From a bacterium (GTDB lineage Bacteria > Patescibacteriota > Minisyncoccia > Phycocordibacterales > UBA9973), in NCBI GenBank assembly GCA_037127795.1, contig JBAXXQ010000001.1, positions 405,198 through 469,197 on the forward strand: 64,000 nucleotides of DNA, read 5' to 3'. Both the position numbers and the translations under genes were made by a program. Below the pieces are notes generated by a model that ran no database searches, was not told the DNA's origin, and saw nothing but the letters and a program-made list of their open reading frames with translations. Below are positions 29,608 to 31,980 of this stretch, one piece after another (the stretch's first letter is position 1; each line of letters begins with the position of its first letter).

Positions 29608-31980
29608 CTACAGTGATGAATCTTTTTTTAGATGGTATTTTTCAAAACCAGAAACTAAAATAGTATCGTATCTCGTAAGATTAAAACTTTTTTGATCTTT
29701 GATACCAGATAACATACTGTTGTTCAACATAAGAGCTGATTTAAAACCATCTTTCTCACTAACCACTGAGTTAGATATTGCTTCTTTTTGAAAAAGCACA
29801 CTATCTTTCGAGATTTCTTTTCGAGCCTCATCTGATATTGGAGCAATCAGTTTTATTTTTTCACCAACTTTTTTAACTTTTGCTTTTGCTAAAAAATCTG
29901 GATGAACACCAACAACTTCATTATCCCAAATTTTAACCTTAAAACTTGCCAATTCTTCACCTAACATACCAACAATAACTAAACCGTCATCTTGATTTAT
30001 TAGTGAATTTAAAGAAATAAGAGCATCTGTGTCTACATTAGCAATCTTTTGTTTAGCTTCTTTTCTAGTTTTAGCTAAGCTTTCTAATATAGGCTGTTTT
30101 TGATCAAGATAATCTTCGTATTCACCTACCTTTCGTTCGCGCAACAATTCAGTACTAATAGGTAATTCAAAAATTTTCAATGCAATACGGGCAGGTAAGA
30201 ATATTTCGTATGGATACAAATCCACAGAAGGTACTACTACACTTACACCTGTATATGCACATTTTTTTGTAAATAAGCACTTTACCGTCTCTTGATACAT
30301 CTTATCGAGAGATTTACAAAAAATCTTTCCATCTACAACAATCGCTTTGTCATATTGGGTTTTTGTATTAGAAAAAAGTGACCGTACAGCTGACACTAAC
30401 ATACAATACTCATTAACAAGTATTACTATTGGAGCTTTAATTTCCAAAAGTCTTTTAAATCGGTTGTTACGAATAATAATCCTACGATATAAGACATCAA
30501 TTGTCGACATACTATAAGTACCATCTTTTTCTTTTCCCAACATCCTAAAACCAGCAGGTATTACAAGTACATTTTCTAAAAAAACAGTTCCCTCAAAAGG
30601 TGCACATTGCTTTAATACACCTATTACAGATATATTATTTTTCGGATAAAACACCTCTCTAAACAATGAATCCAATTCCACACTACATTCAAGATTTTTA
30701 GCGCTAAAAAACTCTTTAAATAATTTTTGAAAATTAACACTTGTTTCATCTTGAAAAATAGGATTTGGTACAGGTACTGCCAAAGCAATATGACCAAAAC
30801 TACGGCGAAATATATCCTGTTTTTTTTCAGTGCCAAAAATCTTTTCACAAAATAATCCATTTTCTGAAAATTTTGTACAAGCTTTGTCACTAAAATAATC
30901 TGGAGTAGTAACCTCACCTTTTGATAAAGCTAATATTTCAGCTGTAGTTATTTTTGATACACGTAAATACGGTTTTTCTCCCTTAATAATCTCTGGTAGA
31001 AACCCCATACCCTGTAATAAACAAAAGCTATCCTCTAAAGAAACCCCTTCATCTGAACCAATAGTAATCCATTCAGAAACACTTTTTTCCAAACCTTTTT
31101 CTACTGCCTTTTGAATAAAAGTCTCCTTTAAAAGAACACCCTCATCTAATTGCATATTGTTTTTGAAAAATAACCCAGACATACCTACAGATTGACTTTT
31201 TGCTTCTACTAGGCCGGGCTGAATGTTGAATTTGAAAAAATCTACATACGCCTTTTCTTTAGTATCAACCCAATATGATCTGCCATTTTTATGCTCTCTA
31301 ACAGAAAGAAGAATCCTATCGTCTTTTTTGTTTTTAATAATATTTCTAAAATTCTCTTTTTCGGTTTTTTCCTCAGAAAGAATAGAAGATGTTACTACTA
31401 TTGAACAATAAATTTGTGGATCTTCTTCAAGCACAGGCATTTCTTTTTCACGAAGAATACCAGCCACAAGAAATTTTTGTTCTTCACAAAAAATAGTATC
31501 ACCAATAGAAAGATTACGTTTAATCAATAAGTAAATAGAAATTTTATTATCTACTCGCTCTGTCGATACTACGGTTGCCTTATCATAAAACCCCATAGAA
31601 ACTCCGGTATTTTCGATTATCTGACCGAAAACATTTTCCACCAGTCTTTCCTTAGAATTTTTTGGTTCAATTTTTTTAACTTTTGCAACCAGTAAATCAC
31701 CACAAGAAACCTCTGTACCAACATTAATAATACTGTCAGTACTACGTGCTTTGAAAAAATTTAAATCTTTTTCACTAATACGAGGCAGATTATTATCTAG
31801 CCATTCATCAGTTTCAAGTAAGATATCAACCTTTTCAACAATTGCTGTTTCAAAATATTTTTTATCAACAACTTTTTGGCTTACAAAAGCCATGTTTGGA
31901 GTATTGATGCCACCCCAAGAAGGCATAACAGTGGTAAGTAATCCTTTACTTACGGTGTCAGAAATTTTTCTTACGTTCAT
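29608..31980 (-). CDS. Degenerate RNA polymerase beta(C-terminal)/beta'(N-terminal)-like fusion protein lacking catalytic motifs
   Basis: Residues ~90-180 align with the RpoB C-terminal region ([23 protein letters not shown] ~ [38 protein letters not shown]..EKEMP ~ VKVYLAVKRRIQPGD..IEDMP). GRHGNKG is replaced by [10 protein letters not shown]. Residues ~360-640 align with the RpoC N-terminus ([11 protein letters not shown] ~ [29 protein letters not shown] ~ [56 protein letters not shown] ~ [38 protein letters not shown]). No zinc-finger cysteines. No NADFDGD. Confidence 0.6.
   Translation of the reverse strand: [790 protein letters not shown]

Follow-up and report, generated by a model that had tools for sequence, protein, structure and literature searches.

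What can a protein do that carries large parts of the two catalytic subunits of bacterial RNA polymerase (RNAP) in one chain and has lost the catalytic residues of both? The question is raised by a gene for a 790-aa protein that lies between lepA and murJ on the minus strand of a 64,000-nucleotide stretch of DNA from a bacterium of the Patescibacteriota (assembly GCA_037127795.1, contig JBAXXQ010000001.1, positions 405,198 to 469,197), the whole of which was analysed and is referred to below as the window. Judged from its sequence and from those of its relatives, the protein belongs to a conserved group of paralogues of the clamp-flap-barrel module of RNAP, which consist of a single chain and are catalytically dead. 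As to its function, we give a probability of about 0.5 to the reading that this non-catalytic clamp, flap and double-barrel paralogue would offer the docking surfaces of the core enzyme and thereby titrate or store the factors that bind there.

Homology to both large subunits is significant in profile and structure databases. The Pfam family RNA_pol_Rpb2_6 matches residues 20-186 with 36.7 bits (gathering score 23.4), RNA_pol_Rpb1_1 reaches 50.9 bits (gathering score 39.7) and Rpb1_2 matches weakly. Among PDB entries, residues 468-634 match ~240-427 of beta' chains (E ~5e-21), and residues 13-186 match beta chains (E ~5e-06). The similarity is therefore not spurious, and a preliminary description of the locus, which had aligned the N-terminal third with RpoB and the middle and C-terminal part with RpoC and had proposed the Rpb2 and Rpb1 profiles as a check, was right on both counts. 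It had assigned the first part to the C-terminal region of RpoB, which is true in part only: the beta homology starts at the 'NYED' strand (beta ~798), takes in the whole flap with the flap-tip helix and lacks beta ~1107-1203. It had also placed the end of the protein short of the NADFDGD region, which has to be corrected, as the family alignment and the mapping to E. coli run through the beta' double-psi barrel to ~beta' 494-510. There the chain does end, and no Pfam match was obtained in it for Rpb1_3, Rpb1_4 or Rpb1_5, which cover bridge helix, trigger loop and funnel. The equivalog models are missed by a wide distance, with 98.3 bits for RpoC (TIGR02386, cut-off 963.5), 25.4 bits for RpoB (TIGR02013, cut-off 801; the N-terminal lobes are missing and the alignment begins at beta ~798) and 76.6 and 60.5 bits for the fused RpoBC models NF007172 and NF011417 (cut-offs 5372 and 4632). 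Scores so far under the cut-offs mark the 790-aa protein as a homologue of RpoB and RpoC and not as an orthologue.

The protein does not stand alone. An exhaustive HMMER search of 1.84 billion representatives revealed full-length relatives of 750-930 aa with E values from 1e-26 to 1e-90, and many more below these, in at least 40 clusters of the same architecture; 38 members were aligned, and at least five further ones were seen (P0128, P0183, P0209, P0326 and P0335). Word-indexed searches had missed this conserved family: with the single protein they returned only itself and canonical beta', and with the family profile canonical beta' dominated at ~550 bits. Neither a profile of the C-terminal segment alone at database scale nor a contig-scale scan of genomes with the single protein found anything, and a scan of genome contigs with a subgroup alignment was dominated by adjacent canonical rpoB-rpoC, the motif 'VIIRNNR' being carried by beta' of Bacteroidota as well. 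Near-identical cluster members differ by just 1-3 residues, and across distant lineages full-length relatives are 20-35% identical, with shared boundaries and conserved blocks. According to the source annotations one member belongs to Candidatus Pacebacteria/Paceibacterota and another cluster to Polyangiaceae, Sandaracinus and Myxococcales; the remaining members come from metagenomes, in several cases from groundwater assemblies. The family is present in Patescibacteria-like and Myxococcota genomes, and probably in other lineages too.

On E. coli the family profile covers residues 798-1341 of the 1342 of beta, followed by 8-494 of beta'. It is interrupted only by an insertion particular to E. 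coli (937-1046) and by a deletion particular to the family (beta ~1107-1203). Flap, both double-psi barrels, clamp, lid and clamp helices are included, as is the Zn ribbon of most members; beta lobes, bridge helix and trigger loop are missing. The C-terminus of beta is joined directly to the N-terminus of beta' in one frame, as in natural RpoBC proteins, and the fusion-like character ascribed to the protein in the preliminary description holds. Since the junction lies exactly where rpoB naturally ends and rpoC begins, it points to a duplicated segment of rpoB-3'/rpoC-5' that turned into a single reading frame. In the 790-aa protein the stretch after GLFCEKIFG runs straight on into the next block, which deletes the Zn ribbon with all four of its cysteines, an absence that had been recognised from the beginning.

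What has been lost is best seen at the catalytic centre. Eight catalytic-site residues are invariant in all two-barrel RNAPs, YonO-like and phage enzymes included, namely the D-D-D triad, R446 and P448 of Rpb1 and D837, K979 and K987 of Rpb2 (Ruprich-Robert and Thuriaux, PMC2919709). Their positions were located with the help of six canonical beta/beta' pairs, that of E. coli and five others, and all residue counts given here are over the 38 aligned members. In beta, D814 is kept in 4/38 (N in the 790-aa protein), K1065 in 0/38 (T) and K1073 in 5/38 (K); in beta', R425 is kept in 1/38 (G) and P427 in 6/38 (E), while the three aspartates D460, D462 and D464 survive in 0/38, 5/38 and 6/38, with K, V and E in their places in the 790-aa protein. 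This protein therefore retains one of the eight invariant residues, and none of the eight is conserved across the family. The GRHGNKG strand of beta is replaced as well, as the preliminary description had seen, although it slightly misquoted the replacing letters, and the DNA-holding residues of switch 2 are gone in every member (K334 0/38, R339 0/38). Both double-psi beta-barrel folds, of common descent with those of the two-barrel RNAP superfamily, are retained. With the catalytic residues unconserved, and without beta lobes, funnel, trigger loop or bridge helix, the family cannot be a polymerase of known kind.

This bears directly on a choice that the preliminary description had left between a non-catalytic paralogue and a subunit of a divergent split RNAP, of which the first part holds and the second does not. 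However far diverged, a subunit of an active split enzyme of the sort found in jumbo phages or among YonO-like enzymes would be expected to keep the residues that all known two-barrel RNAPs keep; with one of eight present, none conserved, no bridge helix, no trigger loop and no conserved partner gene, such a role is very improbable. Searches of PHROGs and BFVD likewise gave only partial matches to full-length phage beta/beta'.

The surfaces on which transcription factors dock have fared otherwise. The tip of the coiled coil formed by the clamp helices is the site used by NusG and RfaH, and its residues A287, P288 and I291 are kept in 36/38, 35/38 and 33/38 members (A516, P517 and I520 of the 790-aa protein). 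On the same helices R275 is kept in 35/38, E295 in 36/38 and A302 in 21/38, plus 9 members with Ser; they correspond to R504, E524 and A531 of the 790-aa protein. Substitution of R275, E295 or A302 impairs holoenzyme formation, these clamp-helix positions being bound by sigma region 2.2, and in Hodgkinia, where formation of the coiled coil is still possible, the three positions drift (PMC8321222). The flap-tip helix, present in ~31-32 of the 38 members and missing or highly divergent in 6-7, keeps F906 in 30/38, L901 in 23/38 and I905 in 22/38, and in the 790-aa protein the entire hydrophobic patch is preserved as L113, V114, V117 and F118 (equivalent to beta L901, L902, I905 and F906). All four cysteines of the Zn ribbon occur together in 31/38 members, and P246 and R250 of the lid in 38/38. 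Besides these docking surfaces, the preliminary description had missed the passage of the chain through a degenerate NADFDGD, the flap with its flap-tip helix, and the existence of a sizeable family whose members mostly carry the Zn ribbon.

The selective retention of docking surfaces, set against the loss of catalytic and DNA-holding residues, suggests binding of the factors that dock there as the most likely mode of action of the protein. It would make no RNA and would resemble core RNAP in its docking surfaces: the clamp helices would receive sigma region 2 or the N-terminal domain of NusG, the flap-tip helix sigma region 4 or the N-terminal domain of NusA, and the bound sigma or Nus factors would be titrated or stored, the protein serving as decoy or reservoir. 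A sigma-bound form in holoenzyme-like geometry might in addition occupy promoters without transcribing. In this bolder form of the idea, which we consider rather unlikely, the protein would be an inert 'pseudo-core' that holds sigma regions 2 and 4 at their native spacing and so unlocks promoter binding, and the resulting pseudo-holoenzyme would read -10 and -35 elements, with UP elements added through an alpha C-terminal domain (alpha-CTD) in Myxococcota, without transcribing. In the active enzyme it is the flap that sets the spacing for -35 recognition (PMC2613000).

Two variations within the family touch these surfaces. The Myxococcota members P0209, P0326 and P0335 (Polyangiaceae, Sandaracinus and Myxococcales) end in an RNA_pol_A_CTD domain (PF03118, 43 bits, gathering score 23.8), and P0326 also has an N-terminal extension of ~180 aa. 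RNAP alpha-CTD binds UP-element DNA and activators, and its fusion to these members favours a promoter-proximal role. In a subgroup comprising P0180 (L003 ~680-790), P0133, P0141, P0168, P0197 and P0202, a CxxC...CxxC insertion follows the flap-tip helix, for example CSQCGDVFAGDEKCPHCSG; it resembles a zinc ribbon and is missing from canonical beta and from the 790-aa protein.

The fused alpha-CTD, as a DNA-binding domain, could also be taken to speak for a different activity, in which the exit-channel elements (flap, lid, Zn ribbon and clamp) would bind RNA or DNA directly, without sigma or Nus factors, as in an RNA chaperone or a nucleoid or R-loop factor. The Zn ribbon of most members and the invariant lid residues agree with such a scaffold. 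However, the basic residues of switch 2 that hold the template are lost in all 38 members, the 790-aa protein is itself without Zn ribbon, and the beta lobes, which form the other half of the main channel, are missing, so that we regard a nucleic-acid-binding scaffold as unlikely.

Structure prediction, another of the checks first proposed, gave a confident result. The AlphaFold2 model, computed with the family alignment as input, has a mean predicted local distance difference test (pLDDT) score of 82.7 and a predicted template modelling score of 0.81, with low confidence only in linkers, in the rudder-equivalent loop 541-553 and in residues 734-743. It predicts a flap-tip helix (109-118) and the helical hairpin of the clamp helices (493-513 and 518-536). 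Foldseek aligns ~490 columns of the model with bacterial beta' chains at E ~1e-21, and the model has a resemblance to an engineered, Spt4/5-binding clamp of archaeal RNAP. Its flap matches flap domains crystallised with the phage proteins P23-45 gp39 and T4 gp33, which identifies the flap surface as a common phage target and brings in the possibility of a decoy or sponge for phage RNAP inhibitors aimed at the beta flap or the beta' clamp, by which the real polymerase would be shielded. We hold this to be improbable, because PADLOC has no match for seven members, none of about nine neighbourhoods is a defence island or a mobile element, the gene lies 4.2 kb outside the integrated element of the window, and the protein has no effector domain. 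The retained interface between the intertwined beta C-terminus and beta' N-terminus would in turn suit an assembly or maintenance factor that acts on the core subunits (alpha, beta and beta') and modulates RNAP assembly or forms a mixed complex, and the alpha-CTD fusion could place the protein where alpha normally acts. Yet the core offers no vacant site, the same segments being already present in canonical beta and beta', and beta ~1107-1203 is deleted; we find a role in assembly quite improbable.

Several observations weigh against the view of the protein as a non-catalytic paralogue that titrates or stores factors. The 790-aa protein is among the more eroded members of the family, with a degenerate middle part, an altered lid and ~33% identity to its nearest relatives; the middle part (residues 191-338) is more eroded than in relatives, and pLDDT falls to 56-73 over residues 200-280. 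No docking site is universal, the flap tip being missing or divergent in 7/38 and the Zn ribbon missing in 7/38, the 790-aa protein included. The conserved residues of the clamp helices could be retained for folding alone, no sigma gene, nus gene or other neighbour is conserved over the nine neighbourhoods, and the word paralogue itself presumes canonical rpoB and rpoC elsewhere in the genome.

The gene itself is intact. The open reading frame of 790 codons has no internal stop, for which the chance probability at the base composition of the gene is ~7e-32, and the start of the protein matches that of the relative P0122 (MNVQRIN...). The promoter-like site upstream agrees with the consensus at 11/12 positions and is the top site of a 3-kb scan, and a terminator-like hairpin follows the stop codon (Table 1). 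The identical protein is encoded in a metagenome-assembled genome at NCBI (WCQ32_02540, on a 580,599-bp contig, annotated as hypothetical) and in an independent Logan assembly. Its synonymous codon usage correlates with that of host genes (r = 0.925). The GC content of 31.6%, with 0.197 at third codon positions (GC3), is lower than in lepA (41.2%) and murJ (36.9%), in accordance with the higher AT content first reported for the gene. Two adjacent ABC-transporter genes of the window are similarly low (GC 30.7% and 31.8%, GC3 ~0.18-0.21), well under the housekeeping genes, and low GC in this genome is thus not specific to the RNAP-like gene. Low GC and the heavily eroded middle segment are what would be expected of a decaying pseudogene left by a partial duplication of rpoBC; in view of the intact frame, the gene's own promoter-like and terminator-like sites, the boundaries and blocks shared with distant full-length relatives and the confident predicted fold, such a pseudogene is extremely improbable.

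The genomic surroundings are those of housekeeping genes. In the window, the chromosomal block that holds lepA and murJ also contains leuS, murG, ftsW and mraY. Elsewhere, members of the family are found beside parB, relA/spoT and topA (L006), pyruvate kinase, HPF and BipA (L008), an MMPL transporter (L009), a DEAD helicase and an ABC ATPase (L011), murG, murC and murB (L012) and thyA and recG (L013), the L002 and L099 neighbourhoods being likewise devoid of a conserved partner. The nine neighbourhoods share no partner gene and have neither a defence nor a mobile-element character, and PADLOC-DB 2.0 gave no defence-system match for the seven members searched. In L099, the region 7218-8708 next to member P0125 holds a Peptidase_S74 protein (tail-fibre chaperone-type), a Zn_ribbon_recom protein and two DUF1653 genes; this sole context with any mobile-element flavour is possibly a prophage remnant. 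A phage origin of the family was considered and rejected, as viral contigs of IMG/VR gave only five beta'-only matches, and the matches in PHROGs and BFVD, to full-length subunits of phages or giant viruses, were only partial.

Membership of the gene in the nearby integrated element was rejected as well, since the gene lies outside the attachment (att) repeats that bound it. This 8.0-kb element has a GC content of 28-33%, lies between two perfect direct repeats, 69 nt long, which correspond to the 3' part of tRNA-Phe, and carries, besides the features listed in Table 1, several open reading frames without Pfam match. Also in the window, the leucyl-tRNA synthetase has an apparent alpha/beta-hydrolase-like insertion between the match of its catalytic domain and its editing domain, and the same protein is present on the independent contig L001.

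Table 1. Features of the RNAP-like gene and of other parts of the window; residues are those of the encoded protein, and beta and beta' numbers those of E. coli.
Feature	Residues	Position	Strand	Remarks
Coding sequence of the 790-aa RNAP clamp-flap paralogue		29608..31980	-	stop codon at 29608-29610; from the list of open reading frames
Beta-like module	12-190	31411..31947	-	degenerate 'NYED' strand, flap domain and degenerate GRHGNKG strand; E. coli beta ~798-1090
Flap-tip helix equivalent	109-120	31621..31656	-	by alignment to the beta flap tip; helix 109-118 in the model
Degenerate beta catalytic loop	159-176	31453..31506	-	replaces GDKMAGRHGNKGVIS; K1065 equivalent is T; K in 0/38 of the family
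Divergent middle part	191-338	30967..31410	-	what is left of the C-terminal clamp segment of beta (~1204-1341), by mapping of the family profile to E. coli; 'LTxKSDxxxGR..AYEAL' block
Beta' N-terminus	339-410	30751..30966	-	beta' ~8-113, Zn ribbon deleted
Lid and clamp helices (coiled coil)	466-538	30367..30585	-	beta' ~240-309; best conserved block; helices 493-513 and 518-536 in the model
Switch-2 region	556-612	30145..30315	-	degenerate; DNA-holding basic residues lost; canonical counterpart GRFRQNLLGKRVDYSGRS
Degenerate beta' double-psi barrel	664-725	29806..29991	-	
NADFDGD equivalent KVKKVGE	701-707	29860..29880	-	all three catalytic Asp gone
C-terminal tail	746-790	29611..29745	-	ends in the family motif L-[ST]-x-x-D-x-x-L, equivalent to 'PSQDVVLG' of beta'
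Sigma-70-type promoter-like site		32053..32081	-	TTGACA-17-TATATT with extended -10 TG; overlaps the end of murJ; consensus match only
Intrinsic-terminator-like hairpin and T-run		29545..29573	-	35 nt past the stop codon; sole terminator-like site of the scan
lepA		27703..29532		flanking gene
murJ		32078..33715		flanking gene
Leucyl-tRNA synthetase, 946 aa		36004..38844	-	insertion at residues ~249-355 (Abhydrolase_1, E 7e-07)
Two adjacent ABC-transporter genes		46174..49863	-	
Integrated element		17324..25390		
att repeats		17324..17392, 25322..25390		at the ends of the integrated element
Truncated tRNA copy		17327..17399		called by Rfam, not by ARAGORN
DUF5677 protein		17577..19061	-	in the integrated element
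LOOT RNA (RF03000)		21968..22097	-	full-length match, 76 bits (gathering score 46.4); inside the integrated element, ~350 nt upstream of the Prim-Pol gene, on the opposite strand
Prim-Pol/PriCT/AAA_25 primase-helicase		22452..24251	+	in the integrated element
Tyrosine integrase		24322..25278	-	in the integrated element

How far does the 790-aa protein resemble what has been described before? With bacterial RpoB and RpoC it shares descent and the fold of flap, both double-psi barrels, clamp, lid and clamp helices, but its one chain is limited to beta ~798-1341 and beta' ~8-510, without beta lobes, bridge helix, trigger loop, funnel or jaw, and it belongs to a family in which the catalytic residues are lost. 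Natural RpoBC fusions, such as those of Helicobacter and Wolbachia (NF007172 and NF011417), have the same head-to-tail beta/beta' junction; they are, however, complete active enzymes of ~2,800-2,900 aa, whereas the 790-aa protein is an internal excerpt without the catalytic residues. The rClamp construct (PDB 3qqc) is artificial, archaeal and confined to the clamp, with ~420 aa and neither flap nor barrels (Martinez-Rucobo et al., 2011, PMC3094117); the 790-aa protein is natural, bacterial and about twice the size. YonO, the crAss-like phage virion RNAP, the non-virion RNAPs of phiKZ and AR9, and QDE-1 are also reduced derivatives of the beta/beta' two-barrel core, yet these are polymerases with all eight invariant residues, none of which the clamp-flap family conserves, and with 30-40% identity over the clamp helices the family is much nearer in sequence to cellular beta' than the YonO-type enzymes are. 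To our knowledge, every two-barrel relative described so far, whether cellular, YonO, jumbo-phage, crAss-phage or RNAi polymerase, is an active polymerase. In the proposed sequestering of sigma from core RNAP, the protein would be comparable to the anti-sigma proteins Rsd and AsiA, to which it has no relation in sequence or fold; these use unrelated folds, while a clamp-flap protein would mimic the core enzyme itself. Neither Pfam nor NCBIfam has a dedicated model for the family, whose members are annotated in their sources as hypothetical or as 'alpha C-terminal domain-containing', and full-text literature searches, the coverage of which leaves out most subscription journals, found no description of such a family.

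If the reading as a factor-binding, non-catalytic paralogue is true, this would be the first pseudoenzyme derived from RNAP, with the sigma/NusG and the sigma/NusA docking surfaces kept together in one soluble chain. A natural single-chain module of clamp and flap would be a potential tool for the structural study of factor binding, and the alpha-CTD fusions of Myxococcota may provide a cultivable route to its function. Should a pseudo-holoenzyme be formed, the protein would represent a categorically new regulator, acting as a global promoter occupier or as a sigma reservoir. More generally, the family would suggest a new kind of transcription control by mimicry of the core enzyme, which would matter especially in Patescibacteria, whose small genomes contain few regulators.

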